A stretch of DNA of 34,080 nucleotides. It comes from Acidobacteriota bacterium. GTDB taxonomy: Bacteria > Acidobacteriota > Vicinamibacteria > Vicinamibacterales > 2-12-FULL-66-21. The notes beneath the pieces were generated by a model that did no database searches, had not been told where the DNA came from, and saw only the letters and a program-made list of their open reading frames with translations. The position numbers were made by a program, and so were the translations under genes. The DNA lies in assembly GCA_013362195.1 (NCBI GenBank), contig JABFWM010000098.1:1-34080 (forward strand), written 5' to 3'. Below, one piece after another: positions 2,274 to 12,394 of this stretch (its first letter is position 1; the number at the start of each line of letters is the position of its first letter).

Positions 2274-2497
2274 ACATGCTCAAAGGCTCGAAGACGGCCG
2301 TCGTCAAGAAGGTTCAGCCGGTCAGTATCCACGGCCAGCTGTCGCTCGATGTCTACTTCTACGATCCGGACGACCCGCAAGGACAAGTGAGCCTCGCGCG
2401 AGTCGGACAGGAATCAGTACCGCGGCGGCTCGAGCCGGGCGATCGCGTGGAGCTGCACTATGTGCTTGGGGTGGTCACGCACATCACGAAAGCGTGA
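2270..2497 (+). CDS. Small hypothetical protein (75 aa, beta-rich)
   Basis: ATGA overlap with the upstream gene; protein-like composition and GC3-rich codons. Confidence 0.7.
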   Translation: MNMLKGSKTAVVKKVQPVSIHGQLSLDVYFYDPDDPQGQVSLARVGQESVPRRLEPGDRVELHYVLGVVTHITKA

Positions 2498-2603
2498 ACA
2501 GCCTCCGTGAATCCGCGGCGGGCAGGGCCGGGCCGCAGCGCGGGGACCGAGAAGAATTGAGGTACACTTGACGTGTTTCCCGCCTGCTTCAGGAGTTCCT
2601 TCG

Positions 2604-3473
2604 ATGTGTTTCACGGGTTTCAGGGACGGCCGGCCCGTCTCCGTGGTTGCCGTTGTCCTGATCGCGGTCATGGCTGGCGCCGTCGGCATCGGCGCGCAGG
2701 CCGCGGCGCCGGCGCCTTTGCCGAAAGTCGAAACGCCGAAGGGCGCGCCGGCGAATCCTGAGACGTCGAAGAGTGAAGCCGGCAAGCAGGATGGCGAGCT
2801 GCCCGCCGCGCGTTCCATCATCGACCGCCACGTCAAGGCGGTAGGCGGACGCGACGCCATCCTGTCGCACACCTCGCAGCACGCGACCGGTACGTTCTCG
2901 GTGCCCGCGCAGGGGCTCACCGGTAGTGTCGAGATTTTCGGCGCCGCGAATCCGAACCGGACCGCGCTTCGCGTGCAGGTGCCGGGCCTTGGCGAGATCG
3001 CCAGCGGCTACGACGGATCGCACGGCTGGTCGATCTCGCCGCTGCTCGGACCGATGCTGCAGGTCGGCAAGGAGCTGGAGCAGGCGAAGTTCGACGCCGA
3101 TTTCTACGGCGACCTGCGCGATCCCAAACGCTACCGCAGCATGAAGACGGTGGAGAAGACGACCTTCGACAACCGGCCCTGCTACAAGGTCAGCCTCGTT
3201 CGTGAGGACGGCTCCGAAGATTTCGACTTCTACGACGCTTCGACGGGGCTGCGCGCCGGCAGCATGAACACCCGCGAAACCCCAATGGGCTCGGTGAAGA
3301 CGACGAGCATCGAAGGGGACTACAAGAAGTTCGGCAACCTGCTGCTGGCGACCACCGTGGTGCAGCAGATCATGGGCATCGAACAGAAGATCACGCTGGC
3401 GTCCATCGAGTTCGACAAGGTCCCGTCGTCCGCGTTCGACTTGCCCGCGCCGATCAAGGCCCTCATCAAGTGA
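2604..3473 (+). CDS. Secreted protein, LolA-like / outer-membrane lipoprotein-sorting-type fold (tentative)
   Basis: AGGAG RBS at 2591-2595; hydrophobic signal segment; IIDRHVKAVGG...GYDGSHGW...FYDASTGL...DYKKFG pattern. Confidence 0.65.
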   Translation: MCFTGFRDGRPVSVVAVVLIAVMAGAVGIGAQAAAPAPLPKVETPKGAPANPETSKSEAGKQDGELPAARSIIDRHVKAVGGRDAILSHTSQHATGTFSVPAQGLTGSVEIFGAANPNRTALRVQVPGLGEIASGYDGSHGWSISPLLGPMLQVGKELEQAKFDADFYGDLRDPKRYRSMKTVEKTTFDNRPCYKVSLVREDGSEDFDFYDASTGLRAGSMNTRETPMGSVKTTSIEGDYKKFGNLLLATTVVQQIMGIEQKITLASIEFDKVPSSAFDLPAPIKALIK

Positions 3474-4786
3474 GGCGGCGGTGTGCGGCCCTCGTCGCCG
3501 CGGCGGGGCTCACCGGCGCGATGCTGTGCGCCGCGCAGCCGCCGGAAGCGGAAGCGACCTTCGACAAGGTCTGGACCATCGTCCGCAATACGCACTTCGA
3601 TCCATCGTTCGACGTCGCCACGTGGGATCGCGCGCGCGCGGAGCTGCGTCCTAAGGCCATCGGCGCGAAGACGCCCGGCGAGTTGCGGGCCGTCCTTCGC
3701 GAACTGCTCGGCCGGCTCGGGCTCTCGCACTTCGCCGTCATCCCGGCCTCGCCCGATGGTCCCGACGATCACGTGAACCTCGGCGGTCAGCCGGGATTCG
3801 ACGTCCGCCTGATCGACCGGCAGCTCATCGTCAGCGCAGTGGATCCGGATGGCCCTGCCGTCTCAGCGGGTGTGAAGCCGGGATGGGCCGTTGAGCGCGT
3901 CGACGGCGTGCCGCTCCCGGATCGGCTCGCCGCGGTGCTGGACGGCGCGCCCGCGCGCATCGCCCAGCTCGAAGCCTGGCGACTCTCGCTCGGCGAGCTG
4001 CGCGGCGCTCCGGGCTCGACGCTCGAGGCGACGTTCGTCGACGGCAGCGGCGCGTCCATGAGGAAATCGATCCAGCGCATCGCCGAATCCGGCGAGCCCG
4101 TCACGGTCGGCAGTCTTCCGACGATGCACGTGCGCGTGCGTTCGTCGCTGATGCGCACCCCGGAGGGCGGCCGCGCGGGCGTGATTGCGTTCAACGTGTG
4201 GATGGCGGCCGTAGACGTGAAATTCCAGCAGGCCATCGATCGTTTCCGCGACGCGGACGGCGTGGTGATCGATCTGCGCGGCAACCCTGGCGGGCTCGCG
4301 GCGATGATCATGGGACTGGCCGGTCACTTCGTTTCCGAACCGCTGACGCTCGGCGTGATGAACGCACGCGGCGATCACGAACTTCGGTTCCGCGCGAATC
4401 CGCGCCTCGTGAGCGGGTCCGGCGACCGGGTGCAGCCGTTCCGCGGCCCGCTCGCGATCGTCGTGGATGGGCTGTCGGCGAGCGCGTCGGAGTGCTTCAC
4501 CGGCGGCTTGCAGTCGCTCGGCCGCGCGCGCGTGTTCGGCGAGACGACGATGGGGCAGGCCCTGCCGGCGTTGTTCGACACGCTTCCGAACGGCGACGTG
4601 TTCATTCACGCGTGGGGCGATTTCGTCACCGGCACGGGCGTGCGGATCGAAGGACGAGGCGTGGTGCCTGACGAAATCGTGCCCGCGACGCGCGCCGATT
4701 TACTCGCCGGACGCGATCGTCCGCTCGAGGCGGCGCTCGCCTGGATCGATCGCGAGCGGCGGAAAGGCCCGCAATCGGCAGACTAG
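3470..4786 (+). CDS. S41 family peptidase with PDZ-like domain
   Basis: Signal peptide; IDLRGNPGG, SASASE (catalytic Ser), IEGRGVVPD motifs; GTGA overlap. Confidence 0.9.
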   Translation: MRRRCAALVAAAGLTGAMLCAAQPPEAEATFDKVWTIVRNTHFDPSFDVATWDRARAELRPKAIGAKTPGELRAVLRELLGRLGLSHFAVIPASPDGPDDHVNLGGQPGFDVRLIDRQLIVSAVDPDGPAVSAGVKPGWAVERVDGVPLPDRLAAVLDGAPARIAQLEAWRLSLGELRGAPGSTLEATFVDGSGASMRKSIQRIAESGEPVTVGSLPTMHVRVRSSLMRTPEGGRAGVIAFNVWMAAVDVKFQQAIDRFRDADGVVIDLRGNPGGLAAMIMGLAGHFVSEPLTLGVMNARGDHELRFRANPRLVSGSGDRVQPFRGPLAIVVDGLSASASECFTGGLQSLGRARVFGETTMGQALPALFDTLPNGDVFIHAWGDFVTGTGVRIEGRGVVPDEIVPATRADLLAGRDRPLEAALAWIDRERRKGPQSAD

Positions 4787-4797
4787 AGTAACTATTG

Positions 4798-4827
4798 TTG
4801 CGCTTGGGTCGAGGCGTCTGTTAGACT
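4798..4827 (+). promoter_or_regulatory. Putative sigma-70 promoter (TTGCGC-N18-TAGACT, extended TG)
   Basis: Hexamers read directly in an AT-richer intergenic region upstream of 4891. Confidence 0.45.
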
Positions 4828-4890
4828 GGACGTGCCTACTAACGCGGTCTTTTCCCAGCCTATCTTTCAGGACAATTCGGGGGAAATTTG

Positions 4891-5517
4891 ATGGAGCAGC
4901 GCCGGCTGCGTCTCGGTGACATTCTGGACGACTATTGTCCGCGCGAGCGCCGTGTGACCAATCACGCGGTGGTCGCGATGATCGACGAAGACGTCAAGCA
5001 GACGCGGTGTACGACGTGCGACGCCGAGCACGTGTACAAGGGCGGACAAGCGCCGCGCCGCCGCAAGACGACGGCGCCCGCACTGACAGTTCCGGGAACA
5101 CCGATGACCGCACAGAACGAACCGCATCCTCATCACGATCCGGACGTCGCCGACGAACCGGTGGTCGCAGCCGCGGCGCCTGTCGAACCGGCGATGGCGG
5201 AGGCGCCGGAGTCCGAACAGGAACCCGACGCGCAGCCGATCACCTCCGACGAAGGCCCCGTTCATCGTCCGCTGATCCGCGCGACCCTGCCCCGTCCCGA
5301 GGGCATCAAGGTCGAACGCCCGGTGCCGGAATTCACGATCCGGCAGAACATCGGCGGACGCGGCAACGGCAGCTTCCGTGCGCGCGGCGGTCAGGGCAAC
5401 GGCGGCCGTCCCGGCGGCGGCGCGCGGTTCGGCCGCGGCCAGCACGGACAGGGCCGTGGCACGGGACAGGGCTTCGGACGCGGCGCGAGCGGACAGCAGA
5501 AGAAGCGCTCGCGCTGA
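4891..5517 (+). CDS. Hypothetical protein: N-terminal Cys/His (zinc-ribbon-like) domain, acidic/Pro linker, Gly/Arg-rich tail
   Basis: DDYCPRE...NH...CTTCDAEH; C-terminal RGG/GRG low-complexity tail; GGGGA RBS-like sequence. Confidence 0.75.
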   Translation: MEQRRLRLGDILDDYCPRERRVTNHAVVAMIDEDVKQTRCTTCDAEHVYKGGQAPRRRKTTAPALTVPGTPMTAQNEPHPHHDPDVADEPVVAAAAPVEPAMAEAPESEQEPDAQPITSDEGPVHRPLIRATLPRPEGIKVERPVPEFTIRQNIGGRGNGSFRARGGQGNGGRPGGGARFGRGQHGQGRGTGQGFGRGASGQQKKRSR

Positions 5518-7674: not shown

Positions 7675-10170
7675 CTACAGAATGCCGGCCGCCGCGCGCT
7701 GGATGTCGAGGTCGGTGAGCTCGGGATGCGCCGGCGGCACCAGCGTCAACCCGCGCGGACCCTTGTCGCGGCCGGTCAGCCGCTTGCGGCGGGCCTTGTC
7801 CTGATACATGCGGTTGTCCGCCGTCGCGAGCAGCGCCTCGTACGACTCGCCGTCCTGCGGGAACACCGCCGCGCCGATGCTGATTCCGAGCTGCAGGCGC
7901 TTGCCCGGCCGCGCCTCGAAGTAGACGGCGTCGACGCCCTGCTGCAGCTCCTGGCGCTTGTGTTCGGCTTCGTCGGCGCTGCAGCCGGACAGCACGATGA
8001 TGAACTCGTCGCCCGCGTAGCGCACGCAGATGTCATAGGGGCGGATCGCGGCGCGCAGCACCCGCGCGACTTCGCACAGCGCCCGGTCGCCGACGTGGTG
8101 GCCGTGGCTGTCGTTGATGTCCTTGAAGTGGTCGAGGTCCATGACCATGAGCGAGACCTCGCCCTTCAGGCGCTCGGCGCGCGCGAGCTCGCGTGTCAGG
8201 TGCATGAACAGGAAGCGCGTGTTCGGGAGGCCCGTCAGCGGGTCCGTCAGCGAATCCTCCTGCGTCTGCTCGAACAGCATCGAGTTGTTGATGACCGCCG
8301 CCGCCTGCTCCGACACGCGATCGAGCAGACGGCGGTGATCGTCGCGATAGAAGGCGGCGTCGGTGTGATAGACCGACAGCGTGCCGATGAACCGTTCGGC
8401 AAACATCAGCGGGCACACCAGCGCCGACTGCAGCGTCGTCGAGAGACTGGTCAGGCCGGCCGCTTCGAGATCGGCGCTGGGCCGGGCGTTGACGAGCGGA
8501 CGGCGGTTGCGCGCGACCCACCCCGTCAGCCCGTCGCCGCTGTGCACCGAGACCTGCTGAATGACGTCGGCATCCGTCCCGGTCGCGAACCGGCAGCGCA
8601 GCGTTTCGGTCTCCTCGTCATAGAGGAACAGCGCGGCGCACGAGAACGGCACCAGGTTGCTCAACTTCGCCGAGATGAGCGCCATCGTGTCGGACACGCC
8701 GAGGCTGGTGCCCATGGCCTGCGCAATCTCGTAGAGCGCGTAAATCTCGCGGTGCGCCAGCGCGATGTCCTCGAAGACGTTCTTCTTCGACGGTTCGGGC
8801 TGGAGGCCGGTCGCCGGACGCCCCGTCTGCGGCTGGTCCTCCGCGGCGGGACGCCGTACCGCCTGCTCGAGGTGAATCGCTTCCGCCTGCATCCCCGGAA
8901 TCAGCTCGATGAACTTCCCGACGACGGCGGGGTCGAGCCCTTTGCCGGCTTCCTGCTGCAGCAGTCCGATCGCCGCCTCGAAGCTCATCGCCTTGTGGTA
9001 CGGGCGCTCCGCCATCAGCGCGTCGAAGTAATCGACGACCGACAGGATCCGCGCGCCGAGCGGGATGTCTTCTCCCTTCAATCCGGCGGGGTACCCCTTG
9101 CCGTCCCACCGCTCGTGATGGCTGAGGATCAGCGGCGCCACCGGATACGGGAACGGCACCGAGCTGACGATGTCGGCGCCGACCTTCGGATGGGCGCGGA
9201 TTTTCTGGAACTCCTCGGGCGTGAGCGGGCCCGGCTTGGACAGGATGTGCTCGGGCACCGCGAGCTTGCCGATGTCGTGCAGCAGCGCCGCGGTCTTGAC
9301 GCCCTGAATGTCGTTCTCGCTCATGCCGAGCGCGCGCGCGACCGCCGCCGCATACAGCTGCACGCGCCGGATGTGCGACTGCGACGTCTGATCCTTCGCG
9401 TCGATGGCGAGGGCGAGCGCCTCGATGGTGGCGAGGTGCAGGTCGGCCATCTCGCGCACGTGGCGCTGTTCGTCTTCGATGCGTCCCAGATAGACCTTGT
9501 AGGTGCGGTACGTCAGGTAGAGCGGCGCTGCGGCGAGCGGCGCGAGCCAGTGGCCCGAGATGCCGACGATCCAGGTGGCGGCCGCGGCGGCGCCGGCGCC
9601 GACGAAATAGCTCGGCGCGCTCCACAGGAAGTTCTCGTTCCAGACCTTGATGACCGCTTGCCGGGTCGACAGCGCAATCGCGGTGGCGATCGTCAGCGTG
9701 TTGATCATGAAGTACGTCGTCGCGGCGCCGACGAGCGGCTTCGCGAGCGTACCGACGTCCATCACCCCGGGAACGCCGCCGAGCCAGCCGTAGACCGCGC
9801 CGGCCGCCTGCACCGTCAGCACCAGGCACGCCATGCTGAAGAGCGTGCGATGCGTCGGATTGCGTTCCTTGATGCGGAAGGTGCACTGGCTGAACGCGCT
9901 GGCCGCGGCGACGACCATCGTCTCGTTCGGGCCGAGCAGCAGCAGCGCCGCGAAATCGACCGCGTACGACACGGACATCGTCGAGGAGCGCCGCGCCAGC
10001 GGCAGGTTCACCTTGAAGACGGACGTGATCGACGAGAGCAGGAGCAGCACGAAAAAGAGCTCCAGCTCCTTGGCGCTGAACCGCGTCGGGAAAAACAGGA
10101 CGAGCAGCGCCGCGCCAGCCGCGATGACCGAGGTCACGAACAGCCGCGCGGGCAGCGGAAGTCTCTTCAT
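7675..10170 (-). CDS. Multi-TM sensor with HD-GYP, GAF and GGDEF (AGDEF) domains
   Basis: About 6-7 N-terminal TM segments; LLHDIGK..HHERWDGKGYP; GAF (GLTGWVA...SALVCPL...IGTL); TDPLTGLPN..DLDHFKDINDSHGH..RPYD..RYAGDEF. Confidence 0.93.
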   Translation of the reverse strand: MKRLPLPARLFVTSVIAAGAALLVLFFPTRFSAKELELFFVLLLLSSITSVFKVNLPLARRSSTMSVSYAVDFAALLLLGPNETMVVAAASAFSQCTFRIKERNPTHRTLFSMACLVLTVQAAGAVYGWLGGVPGVMDVGTLAKPLVGAATTYFMINTLTIATAIALSTRQAVIKVWNENFLWSAPSYFVGAGAAAAATWIVGISGHWLAPLAAAPLYLTYRTYKVYLGRIEDEQRHVREMADLHLATIEALALAIDAKDQTSQSHIRRVQLYAAAVARALGMSENDIQGVKTAALLHDIGKLAVPEHILSKPGPLTPEEFQKIRAHPKVGADIVSSVPFPYPVAPLILSHHERWDGKGYPAGLKGEDIPLGARILSVVDYFDALMAERPYHKAMSFEAAIGLLQQEAGKGLDPAVVGKFIELIPGMQAEAIHLEQAVRRPAAEDQPQTGRPATGLQPEPSKKNVFEDIALAHREIYALYEIAQAMGTSLGVSDTMALISAKLSNLVPFSCAALFLYDEETETLRCRFATGTDADVIQQVSVHSGDGLTGWVARNRRPLVNARPSADLEAAGLTSLSTTLQSALVCPLMFAERFIGTLSVYHTDAAFYRDDHRRLLDRVSEQAAAVINNSMLFEQTQEDSLTDPLTGLPNTRFLFMHLTRELARAERLKGEVSLMVMDLDHFKDINDSHGHHVGDRALCEVARVLRAAIRPYDICVRYAGDEFIIVLSGCSADEAEHKRQELQQGVDAVYFEARPGKRLQLGISIGAAVFPQDGESYEALLATADNRMYQDKARRKRLTGRDKGPRGLTLVPPAHPELTDLDIQRAAAGIL

Positions 10171-10205
10171 CAGGCGCCCCAGACGGCCTTGTGACGAATC
10201 CTCAC
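10170..10205 (-). CDS. Putative 11-aa mini-ORF MRIRHKAVWGA (or amber read-through extension of the S8 protease)
   Basis: GGAGGT SD 5 nt before GTG; TGA overlaps the next ATG (TGATG); in frame with the S8 ORF; carries the same VWG motif. Confidence 0.5.
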   Translation of the reverse strand: MRIRHKAVWGA

Positions 10206-10208
10206 GCG

Positions 10209-12107
10209 CTACCTCCGTTGCGCCGGCGCTGCGGTATGCGCGCGCCGCCGGGGCGAGGCCCAGATCACGTTGTCGGATGCCTCGAGGACGCTGGCGCCCG
10301 AAGCGATGCCCGGTACGTCACTGGCGGCGGACGTGCCCCAGACCGTGTTCACCGCCGCGTCGGCCGTGCCCCAGACGAGGTCCTCGCCGTCCACGAGCGT
10401 GCCCCACACGACGTTGCGGCAATCCGCGCCGCCGCAGTCGCTGCCCCAGACGACGTTCTCGACGTCGCGGGTCGATCCCCACACCACCCGCTCGCCGTCG
10501 ACCTTCGTGCCCCAGGCGAGGCTCGCCGCGTCGAGCGTGGTTTCTCCCGTGGCGGGTGATTCCGCGGCGGTCCCCCAGACGTAGGTGGCGCAGTTGGCAG
10601 CGGTGCACGCGGCGCCCCAGGCGATGCTGCGGCCGTCGGCCGTGCGCGCGCTGCCCCAGGAAATGTCGGTGCGCCATCCGTTCGCCGCCGGGAGCAGCTG
10701 TCCGTGCGCGAGGCGCTGGTTGCCCCAGATGATCGTCCCGCTCCACGGCGTGGGATCGCCGAGCCGCGATCGCGAGAGGCTGCGGCCCGCGGCCAGCGAT
10801 CGTGCGAGTTCGACCGCGCCGCGCGCGTTGAGGAAGCCGGCGCCCTGCGCGAGCGGCCTCACGTGCTTGTCCTCCGCGGTGTACTGCAGGATCGCCTTGA
10901 CCAGGTTCGGGGTCAGATCGGGATTCGCCTGCAGCATCAACGCAATCGTGCCGGTGACGACCGGCGACGCCATGCTCGTGCCGCTCAACGCGAGGTAGGG
11001 TTCCGCGGCGGTCGCGACGGTGCCCCACAGCCGCGCCGACGGTTTCGTGAGATAGAGCGTGCTGGCCGCGTCGGTCAGCGATTCGATGCCGACGCCCGGC
11101 GCGATGAGATCCGGCTTCGCGGCGAAATCAATGGCGCCCGGTCCGCGCGAGCTGAACGCCGCGACGCTGTCGTCGCGCCGATCGCTCGTGCCCATGTGCG
11201 TCGAGGCGCCCACGGTGATGACCCACGGCGCGTTGCCGGGCGCGCCAATCCCGCCGTATTGCGTCTGACCGGCGGCATTTCGCCCGAGATTGCCCGCGGC
11301 GGTCACGACGGCGATGCCGGCTTCGACCGCGCGCTTTGCCGCAAGGGTCAGCGGATCGGTGGTGTACGACTCGTAGACGCCGGCGGCGACCGACAGGTTG
11401 ATGACCCGGATGTTCAGCGCGTCCTTGTTCGCGATCGCGTAGTCGATCGCCGCGATGACGTTGCTGATGTAGCCCTGCCCCGTCGAGTCGAGCACCTTTT
11501 CGACGAGCAGCGACGCCCCGGGTGCGATGCCGCGGCGGCGCCCGCCCGAGTCGTAGCCGCTGCCCGCGACGATGCCGGCGACGTGCGTGCCGTGCCCGTA
11601 ATCGTCGTACGCGCCCGACTGGAAGTTCACGAAATCCACGAAGCGGACGACGCGGTTGGAGCCGAGATCGTCGTGCCACGAGGCGACGCCCGAATCGATG
11701 AGAGCGATGCCGACGCCCGTGCCATCGAGGCCGAGAGTCTCGCGGACCCAGGTCGCGCCGACCGTGGCGCCGGTCCGCTCGATGGTGCCCTGAACGCCGC
11801 GGTCGAGGCTGATGCCGGCGACCTCCGGGCGCGCCGCCAACGCCTCGAGCGCGGTGTCAGGCACCTCGGCCACCTGCGCGCCCAGCAGGGCGAGACTGCG
11901 GCTGACGATGCCGTGCAGCGCCGTGACCAGCCCGTCTGCGTTGACGCCGGCGGCCAGGCGGACGATGACGCGCGACCGGCCGCGCGGCGCGTGGGCGCGC
12001 GCGCGCAATGCCGCGTCGAGCTTTGCATCGCCGGCGTGCGGCGCACCGAACGCGGGCAGGCCGGCAGCAGCGATCAGCGCGGCGACGAGCAGAAGGCGTC
12101 TGACCAT
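10209..12107 (-). CDS. Secreted subtilisin-like S8 serine protease with C-terminal xxWG repeat tail
   Basis: Signal peptide MVRRLLLVAALIAAAG; triad IDSG / GHGTHVAG / SGTSMASP; oxyanion AAGN; start chosen downstream of the sigma-54 promoter (alternative ATG 12173). Confidence 0.92.
   Translation of the reverse strand: MVRRLLLVAALIAAAGLPAFGAPHAGDAKLDAALRARAHAPRGRSRVIVRLAAGVNADGLVTALHGIVSRSLALLGAQVAEVPDTALEALAARPEVAGISLDRGVQGTIERTGATVGATWVRETLGLDGTGVGIALIDSGVASWHDDLGSNRVVRFVDFVNFQSGAYDDYGHGTHVAGIVAGSGYDSGGRRRGIAPGASLLVEKVLDSTGQGYISNVIAAIDYAIANKDALNIRVINLSVAAGVYESYTTDPLTLAAKRAVEAGIAVVTAAGNLGRNAAGQTQYGGIGAPGNAPWVITVGASTHMGTSDRRDDSVAAFSSRGPGAIDFAAKPDLIAPGVGIESLTDAASTLYLTKPSARLWGTVATAAEPYLALSGTSMASPVVTGTIALMLQANPDLTPNLVKAILQYTAEDKHVRPLAQGAGFLNARGAVELARSLAAGRSLSRSRLGDPTPWSGTIIWGNQRLAHGQLLPAANGWRTDISWGSARTADGRSIAWGAACTAANCATYVWGTAAESPATGETTLDAASLAWGTKVDGERVVWGSTRDVENVVWGSDCGGADCRNVVWGTLVDGEDLVWGTADAAVNTVWGTSAASDVPGIASGASVLEASDNVIWASPRRRAHTAAPAQRR
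10257..10733 (-). repeat. Eleven peptide-level xxWG(/WA) repeats in the S8 C-terminus
   Basis: IIWG, ISWG, IAWG, YVWG, LAWG, VVWG x3, LVWG, TVWG, VIWA; two CxxxxC motifs (CTAANC, CGGADC). Confidence 0.9.
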
Positions 12108-12140
12108 GGTCGCAAGGTGTCGGGGTAACGGCCGAAGACT

Positions 12141-12156
12141 TGCAATCCGCTTGCCC
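12141..12156 (-). promoter_or_regulatory. Sigma-54 (-24/-12) promoter for the S8 protease operon
   Basis: Minus strand GGGCAAGCGGATTGCA = GG-N10-GC with TTGCA, close to the consensus TGGCACG-N4-TTGCW; 33 nt upstream of ATG 12107; a sigma-54 activator gene is adjacent. Confidence 0.75.
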
Positions 12157-12260
12157 TCCACCGTGTGGCTCATCGCAGCACGCAACCCGCTTGTTTGACG
12201 CCTGTTATTGCCGATTTGCCGGGCAAACGCCGGCGCGTCGTCCGCCGCTTTCGGTAATAC

Positions 12261-12279
12261 CTGTCCCGTTTCGTAACAG
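12261..12279. promoter_or_regulatory. Candidate enhancer (UAS) CTGT-N11-ACAG
   Basis: TGT...ACA dyad about 105-120 bp upstream of the -24 element, a usual position for bEBP binding sites. Confidence 0.4.
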
Positions 12280-12394
12280 CAGGCCCCAAACCTCGCGCTA
12301 ACTCCTTCCGCGCCTGCACGATGGCGGAAAGGCCGCGTGGTCAGCAACCGCACAGACTAAAGTCGCTGAAACGCGCGATTTTGCGCGGATTTCA

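Follow-up and report, generated by a model that had tools for sequence, protein, structure and literature searches.

This article is about a very short open reading frame (ORF), encoding the peptide MRIRHKAVWGA and hereafter called the mini-ORF, which lies on the minus strand of a 34,080-nucleotide (nt) stretch of DNA (the window) between a gene for an S8 (subtilase) protease and a gene for a membrane protein of cyclic di-GMP (c-di-GMP) signalling, the latter referred to below as the main gene with its main protein. The window is contig C385 of G000, a metagenome-assembled genome from the Vicinamibacterales (Acidobacteriota). Comparison with related genomes indicates that the mini-ORF is real, is a conserved feature of one order of soil Acidobacteria and goes with the signalling gene and not with the protease, and it probably hands ribosomes on to the signalling gene.

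The protease gene (10209..12107, minus strand; Peptidase_S8 match with E 2.9e-48) is contained in an open frame of 714 codons (10209-12353, minus strand), within which the putative start, picked by eye at the signal peptide, is the ATG at 12107-12105 (MVRRLLL...). Its translation carries a C-terminal tail of 11 xxW[G/A] units and finishes with ...APAQRR and a TAG at 10211-10209. The final two protease codons also hold a GGAGG (10212..10216, minus strand) that resembles a Shine-Dalgarno (SD) site, and the GGAGGTAG of this site is found again in four other loci (L002, L005, L021 and L071). The trinucleotide CGC separates the protease TAG from the GTG (10205-10203) that opens the mini-ORF, placing the GGAGG 6 nt 5' of that start; the first-pass annotation of this DNA had counted 5 from the end of a strong GGAGGT. 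The pairing energy to the generic anti-SD core, the score used throughout, is -10.9 kcal/mol. The mini-ORF itself (10170..10205, minus strand), recognized from its sequence and from its conservation in orthologues, consists of GTG and ten further codons, among them the five invariant ones for K-A-V-W-G (AAG GCC GTC TGG GGC; 10176..10190, minus strand), the motif singled out by the mismatch pattern and enrichment described below. Its TGA (10172-10170) overlaps the main ATG (10170-10168) by 1 nt, the common A at 10170, and this ATG has a weak site of its own (-4.7 kcal/mol); the earlier remark was that it lacks an evident SD. The minus-strand sequence and the ORF given in that annotation stand letter for letter, and in the window the gap is, as it had said, open in the protease frame and encodes VWG.

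The main gene (7675..10170, minus strand) encodes an 831-amino-acid (aa) protein with domain matches to HD_5 (6.4e-46; HD-GYP), GGDEF (1.3e-42), GAF_2 (1.2e-15) and MASE9 (1.6e-05; 25.3 bits for a cut-off of 24.3). This MASE9-HD-GYP-GAF-GGDEF arrangement has already been described and is exactly alike (Galperin and Chou, bioRxiv 10.1101/2021.11.05.467447); the relevant passages of that work treat the protein alone and leave an upstream ORF unmentioned. Every base of 10158-10300 is matched by contigs from four runs of four studies, which within 10100-10300 differ from the window at 10143 and 10268 only, and the TAG and the mini-ORF are therefore not assembly errors. A look-up of sequencing runs that hold the stretch listed none of RNA.

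Conservation, coding constraint and the protease

Two sets of loci were compared. The syntenic set comprises 14 loci with both the protease and the signalling gene (L001-L013 and L015, L001 being the window, with L014 left out as unreadable), and the first 330 aa of the main protein are 77-91% identical among 13 orthologues. The signalling-protein set consists of the best 80 of 278 relatives (L021-L100), picked by these first 330 aa with the upstream region ignored, and the start is unreadable in 5 of them. A mini-ORF of the form M-x-[IVL]-R-x-K-A-V-W-[G/S]-x(1-2)-stop stands between the protease and the signalling gene in 9 of the 14 syntenic loci, and 29 of the best 80 loci (counting the single-residue variants KAVWS, EAVWG, KVVWG and NAVWG) have an ORF ending in K-A-V-W-G plus 0-3 residues, the stop of which lies between a 4-nt overlap with the main start and 16 nt before it. 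Over 37 loci the spacer from the mini-ORF stop to the main start runs from -4 to +16 (-1 in the window), and in all 37, as well as in L089, KAVWG is followed by a stop after 0-3 codons. The mini-ORF has 11-14 codons in the window's clade, 12-22 in a middle group and 32-34 in a distant clade. At the closest locus, L021, with 92% main-protein identity, the peptide is identical to the window's, two codons have changed synonymously (AGG>AGA and ATT>ATC) and one extra base lies between the TAG and the GTG. On a FastTree phylogeny of 84 main-protein sequences the mini-ORF is present on either side of the midpoint root, and exact look-up of 10 longer mini-ORF forms in a 15-billion-protein collection returned none of them.

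About five further loci of the best 80 carry decayed versions (SKVGRGS-stop in L097, MEARGF-stop in L085, MTLGFFA-stop in L032 and L050, and one in L091), and several lineages without KAVWG keep a short ORF that ends on the main start or a few nt before it (L032/L050, L085, and L007/L025 with an ORF of 12 codons). The 12-codon ORF of the syntenic L007 is unrelated in sequence to the mini-ORF; in the likewise syntenic L011, L012, L013 and L015 the mini-ORF is absent and the protease stop directly overlaps the main start.

What is conserved is the peptide. In a position-blind test, which took the best Hamming match to the 15-nt KAVWG-coding string within the 70 nt before each main start, 31/82 upstream regions lay within 3 mismatches of that string compared with 7/1640 shuffles, so the recurrence of KAVWG is more than chance. 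The 35 matches with no more than 4 mismatches, three protease repeat units included, have 63 mismatches between them. Of these, 54 are at the synonymous positions of the K, A, V and G codons (positions 3, 6, 9 and 15), against an expectation of about 17 for an even spread. Outside the motif the Ile codons ATT/ATC/ATA and the Arg codons CGT/CGA/CGC interchange, and in the long form of the mini-ORF a conserved Ser alternates between AGT and TCT. This comparison of sequences establishes that selection acts on the encoded residues, I-R-[R/H]-K-A-V-W-G.

The first-pass annotation had also considered for the stretch a hidden twelfth VWG unit of the protease repeat array, expressed by programmed amber read-through or cut off by a recent nonsense mutation in a formerly longer tail. 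The shared frame in the window would suit such an extension or remnant, and so would the resemblance to the repeats, since the mini-ORF matches the 11 units at 10-15 of 21 nt, on a par with the mean of 12.8 among the units themselves (in the flanks outside V-W-G, 3-7 of 12 nt, with a mean among units of 5.6). The orthologues speak otherwise: the mini-ORF lies in the protease frame at just one of the nine protease-linked orthologous loci, which is the window, the protease stop is TAG in six of these and TGA in three, and the closest orthologues stop at the same point (...QRR-stop, ...QQG-stop), so that, together with the 1-nt indel of L021, both read-through and a recent nonsense mutation are rejected. 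Membership of the S8 repeat array fails as well, because the 74 loci whose upstream sequence reaches 1200 nt or more include 12 with the mini-ORF and no S8 gene and 34 with S8 and no mini-ORF, besides 16 with both and 12 with neither. With the TAG also seen in four studies, I regard a read-through extension or remnant as very improbable indeed. In a more distant past the mini-ORF may still have been derived from a protease repeat unit, because its nucleotide identity to the repeats is that found among the repeats.

The S8 gene is a frequent neighbor. It directly precedes the signalling gene at 50 of the 74 loci, often with an overlapping stop and start, and this widely conserved pairing of S8 and MASE9 genes suggests that the secreted protease and c-di-GMP signalling are functionally connected. 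In six orthologues (L002, L003, L005, L006, L008 and L009) the protease frame continues into the frame of the signalling gene with a single stop between them, probably as a by-product of 1-nt and 4-nt overlaps. The orthologous protease of G002 (C6, 159920-161775, minus strand) matches in two overlapping pieces, which may reflect a frameshift, and the signalling ORF of L004 (G023) is open for 177 codons only; either case may be a broken gene or an error of assembly.

KAVWG elsewhere in the family

The mini-ORF is one of several places in which these bacteria use the motif. A AARGCNGTNTGGGGN pattern gives 82 matches in 41 relatives versus 30 for the reversed control, and outside the order a hand count of 139 other Acidobacteriota genomes gives about 105 matches versus about 125 controls (a tally that takes in the unpublished G063 and G086, with one match each, on which no claim rests); since matches and controls are about equal there, the enrichment of KAVWG is specific to this family and its near relatives. 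All 82 matches were placed by context, 81 by reading the locus and 1 by position. Eleven, including the one placed by position only, are upstream ORFs (uORFs) before a MASE9 gene; 18 form the C-terminal tail (...DWRQAKAVWGSIIH and a stop) of a GNAT protein (Acetyltransf_3) encoded directly upstream of an S8 paralogue, 6 lie in the N-terminal region of S8 paralogues (in the window's own genome, on C432, ...DRSKAVWG-MRGTASVL...), 16 at the N-terminus of a lipoprotein encoded directly after a secretin gene (Secretin match) and 4 at other signal-peptide-like N-termini. Short ORFs ending in KAVWG(S) and a stop account for 5, three of them between tRNA-Gly and tRNA-Thr, and the remainder are 4 matches in OmpR/KdpE-like regulators, assigned by eye, and 18 scattered ones, which together come to about the reversed-control count. 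Every conserved protein context reads the motif in the KAVWG frame.

In the lipoprotein, the lipobox Cys follows [R/K]KAVWG at a distance of 16-20 residues, mostly 17 (in the 11 of 16 orthologues that were measured, by eye), and the N-termini read MKIRRKAVWGSG..., MRIAHKAVWGSG... and, in the window's own genome (C24), MTKAVWGAR.... The window's MRIRHKAVWGA resembles in particular the lipoprotein starts MRIAHKAVWG (L130) and MKIRRKAVWG (L117), and the mini-ORF thus shares with the signal peptides of the family the basic residues and KAVWG, while the hydrophobic core and the cleavage site are absent (a stop follows). Judged from these likenesses, the window peptide would amount to the basic N-region that a local signal peptide has, with a stop placed just ahead of the main protein's first membrane helix. 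A twin-arginine signal was considered and rejected, with RR preceding KAVWG in 7/16 lipoprotein orthologues only. Conserved motifs in the N-region of signal peptides are known in YSIRK-G/S and in the autotransporter ESPR extension, and like these the motif described here is lineage-specific and sits at the boundary between the basic and hydrophobic parts of signal peptides; unlike them, in the window it is a stand-alone ORF with a stop in place of the hydrophobic core.

Several observations on these other contexts deserve mention in their own right. In the window's genome the secretin-linked lipoprotein has 204 aa (C24, L161, 1764-2375, minus strand) and the secretin gene (2384-4930, minus strand) directly precedes it; across 16 genomes the motif of this lipoprotein is invariant and its hydrophobic core variable, and its sole Pfam match is below the cut-off. 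In the S8 paralogues (C432 of the window's genome, motif at 4388-4402, minus strand, and L019, L020, L113, L103 and L145) an in-frame KAVWG lies in a long N-terminal extension ahead of the hydrophobic core of the signal peptide, and in L019 and L020, because ATT follows the motif, translation must begin at the ATG upstream, itself preceded by an AGGGG-like site. Alternating arrays of S8 protease and GNAT (Acetyltransf_3) genes occur at L163 (G009:C110, 1-3600), L016, L018, L101-L112, L114, L121, L166, L168 and L169; the GNAT gene downstream of the C432 paralogue ends in ...ALIRQTSSIVH and a stop, not in ...DWRQAKAVWGSIIH. Among the tRNA-spacer loci, tuf follows the tRNA pair in L133, a second conserved block precedes tRNA-Thr in L129 and L131, no Rfam match was obtained beyond the tRNAs, and no copy of the tRNA pair was found in the window's own genome. 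A full-text search found the string 'KAVWG' in no paper of the library covered, nothing on this system for uORFs with diguanylate cyclases and nothing relevant on Vicinamibacter signal peptides or subtilisin.

A possible ribosome relay and its rivals

On balance I favor the interpretation that the mini-ORF is a translated relay cistron, working by termination and reinitiation, with a peptide that has a further role. Ribosomes that end the protease at its TAG, or that bind the GGAGG, would initiate at the GTG that follows after 3 nt, translate the 11 codons as far as the UGA and then reinitiate on the signalling gene at its overlapping AUG, which has a weak SD of its own. The reading comes from the chain of protease stop, mini-ORF start, mini-ORF stop and main start, from the gap between protease and main gene, in which no promoter-like and no terminator-like site was found in the window, and from the short ORFs that are kept where KAVWG is gone. 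In close orthologues the mini-ORF start follows the protease stop after 1-4 nt or overlaps with it (67 nt separate them in L010). Mini-ORF starts were scored in 15 loci; in 13 the start is accompanied by an SD-like site scoring -5.5 kcal/mol or better, and in 6 the site is as strong as -10.7 to -11.2 kcal/mol. The proposal of the first-pass annotation that a basic VWG peptide couples translation to the receptor fits these comparative data, in which the ORF, the SD-like start and the overlap of stop and start recur under codon-phase constraint, and the alignment of orthologues that it had asked for finds the stop and the VWG mini-ORF recurring, along with an SD-like start that is strong in the 6 of 15 loci just counted. 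I infer from this that the mini-ORF is translated, that termination and reinitiation couple it to the main gene and that the peptide has a second role.

Several results weigh against this interpretation. The SD-like site before the mini-ORF is weak in some orthologues (-3.8 kcal/mol in L003 and -1.7 in L044), and the SD of the main start is no weaker in loci with the mini-ORF (n=29, median -4.7) than in those without it (n=47, median -5.0; p 0.32), so this proxy gives no support for a dependence on coupling. The main-protein tree requires at least 14 gains or losses of the mini-ORF, which implies that it is dispensable; the tree has many weak forks, and because the motif is identical everywhere I would read the mini-ORF as an old feature that has been lost many times. 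Copies of the KAVWG(S)-stop ORF in the tRNA-Gly(tcc)/tRNA-Thr(ggt) spacers of L129, L131 and L133 (G009, G005 and G011) are poorly explained by a coding reading, and a pure relay needs no conserved peptide, which leaves part of the function unexplained. In the distant clade, furthermore, the KAVWG codons can pair with main codons 3-5 and enclose the AUG, with no two-sided covariation.

The last point calls for a closer look at the RNA. An Rfam scan of window positions 9900-10500 and of the L075 leader returned nothing relevant at E up to 1, the fold of window positions 10121-10260 is no better than shuffles (z 0.71), and folding the near clade jointly yields no consensus structure (-4 kcal/mol); this clade carries a UGGGG 6 nt before the main AUG. 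For the window's clade, explanations based on RNA are weak. For the distant clade RNAalifold predicts a hairpin within the mini-ORF with some compensatory changes, and in that clade RNA pairing may add to the constraint on KAVWG and translation of the mini-ORF could unmask the main start as well. Eight of its loci (L075, L079, L082, L086, L087, L093, L095 and L098) also share a conserved promoter-like site, TTG... followed by TAT(T/G)CT, located some 100-135 nt ahead of the main ATG, and its two boxes flank the palindrome ATGAC-N6-GTCAT; the 32-34-codon uORF begins (GTG/TTG) 8-9 nt past the second box and may therefore be nearly leaderless, and the main AUG sits in a GCGC-ACAU-GCGC hairpin. 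Fusion of the uORF to the main ORF by frameshifting was rejected, as the spacer lengths cover all three phases.

Three other accounts of the conserved residues have to be weighed against a relay. KAVWG could be a nascent-chain module that pauses or arrests on the ribosome, near the stop or in early elongation, and so meters ribosomes to the main start; exported proteins would carry the same module at their N-termini, and the GNAT gene that precedes S8 paralogues would carry it at its end. The conserved residues adjoin the stop, with an N-terminal length anywhere from 11 to 34 codons, one frame is common to the GNAT tails (18), lipoproteins (16), S8 N-termini (6) and other signal peptides (4), the ribosome would be the sole reader common to all contexts, and PepNL, which stalls termination at UGA, offers a precedent (PMC11890864). 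Yet the residues after the G vary, and so does the stop (TGA, TAG or TAA), unlike in most termination-arrest peptides, and I consider this account unlikely, if the least so of the three. That the released 11-aa peptide is itself the product, serving the MASE9 sensor as ligand or partner or the S8 protease as substrate or decoy, in the manner of peptide-signal cassettes, is a thought prompted by the adjacency of protease, peptide and membrane sensor, the frequency of S8 genes upstream and the selection on the peptide sequence. Such a product would have to do without an export signal, its motif is invariant over an order and not diversifying, it recurs in unrelated proteins and none of the 10 longer forms looked up is on record as a called protein, all of which makes this idea rather improbable.

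Slightly less probable again is that conservation attaches to a nucleotide element, some site in the RNA or DNA to which the ORF is incidental. The copies in tRNA spacers would suit such a site, as would the distant-clade pairing with the main ORF start and the near-clade UGGGG, but the positions free to vary are codon third positions, five protein families share one frame, motif and main start are anywhere from 5 to 22 nt apart, and neither a near-clade fold nor an Rfam match is to hand. The relay, with a further role for the peptide, keeps its place as the interpretation I favor.

Arrest peptides encoded by short uORFs that regulate a downstream gene, such as TnaC, are well known. Among published systems, that of PMC13285730 (2026) is reported to be, like the mini-ORF, a short ORF with its own ribosome-binding site and a stop overlapping or abutting the main start, so positioned as to deliver or unmask ribosomes; the mini-ORF differs in lying within an operon between two long genes, in being order-wide, in having a peptide under selection and in being known from sequence. 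Another is mgtQ, a short ORF between mgtC and mgtB in Salmonella (Choi et al., 2021; PMC8092293), which is likewise intergenic in an operon and followed by the gene of a membrane protein, and which is reported to promote translation of that next gene, with particular peptide residues mattering. It is reported to do so with alternative stem-loops and ribosome-destabilizing acidic residues, whereas the mini-ORF is basic with a Trp-Gly and shows no near-clade fold. The 14-aa arrest peptide PepNL, upstream of pepN in Escherichia coli (Ando et al., 2025; PMC11890864), comes from a uORF of similar size with a UGA stop and is reported to regulate pepN, a downstream peptidase gene; the stop codon of the mini-ORF varies among orthologues, and the evidence for the mini-ORF is genomic.

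The boldest reading that fits all contexts would be a pause or arrest in the ribosome tunnel, and a conserved targeting motif would be another. Extended to the family, KAVWG might be a lineage-specific on-ribosome module (a pause, arrest or targeting signal) before envelope genes that forms a translational regulon, a conjecture I hold to be unlikely; its members would be the MASE9 uORF, the signal peptides of the secretin-linked lipoprotein and of the S8 proteases, and the end of the GNAT gene before S8 paralogues.

In kind, the mini-ORF appears to be a bacterial uORF or leader cistron, and what seems new about it, on comparative grounds, is its relay position with a long gene on either side, its order-wide conservation, the selection on the uORF peptide and the sharing of that peptide with exported proteins. 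Few conserved bacterial uORFs are known in which the peptide itself, and not position alone, is under selection, and most of these come from model organisms. Here is one from uncultured soil Acidobacteria that fronts a highly conserved c-di-GMP protein usually linked to a secreted protease, and gene callers miss it, as the look-up of its longer forms illustrates. If it is true that the peptide acts on the ribosome or in targeting, it would represent a new regulatory module common to envelope genes of these bacteria.

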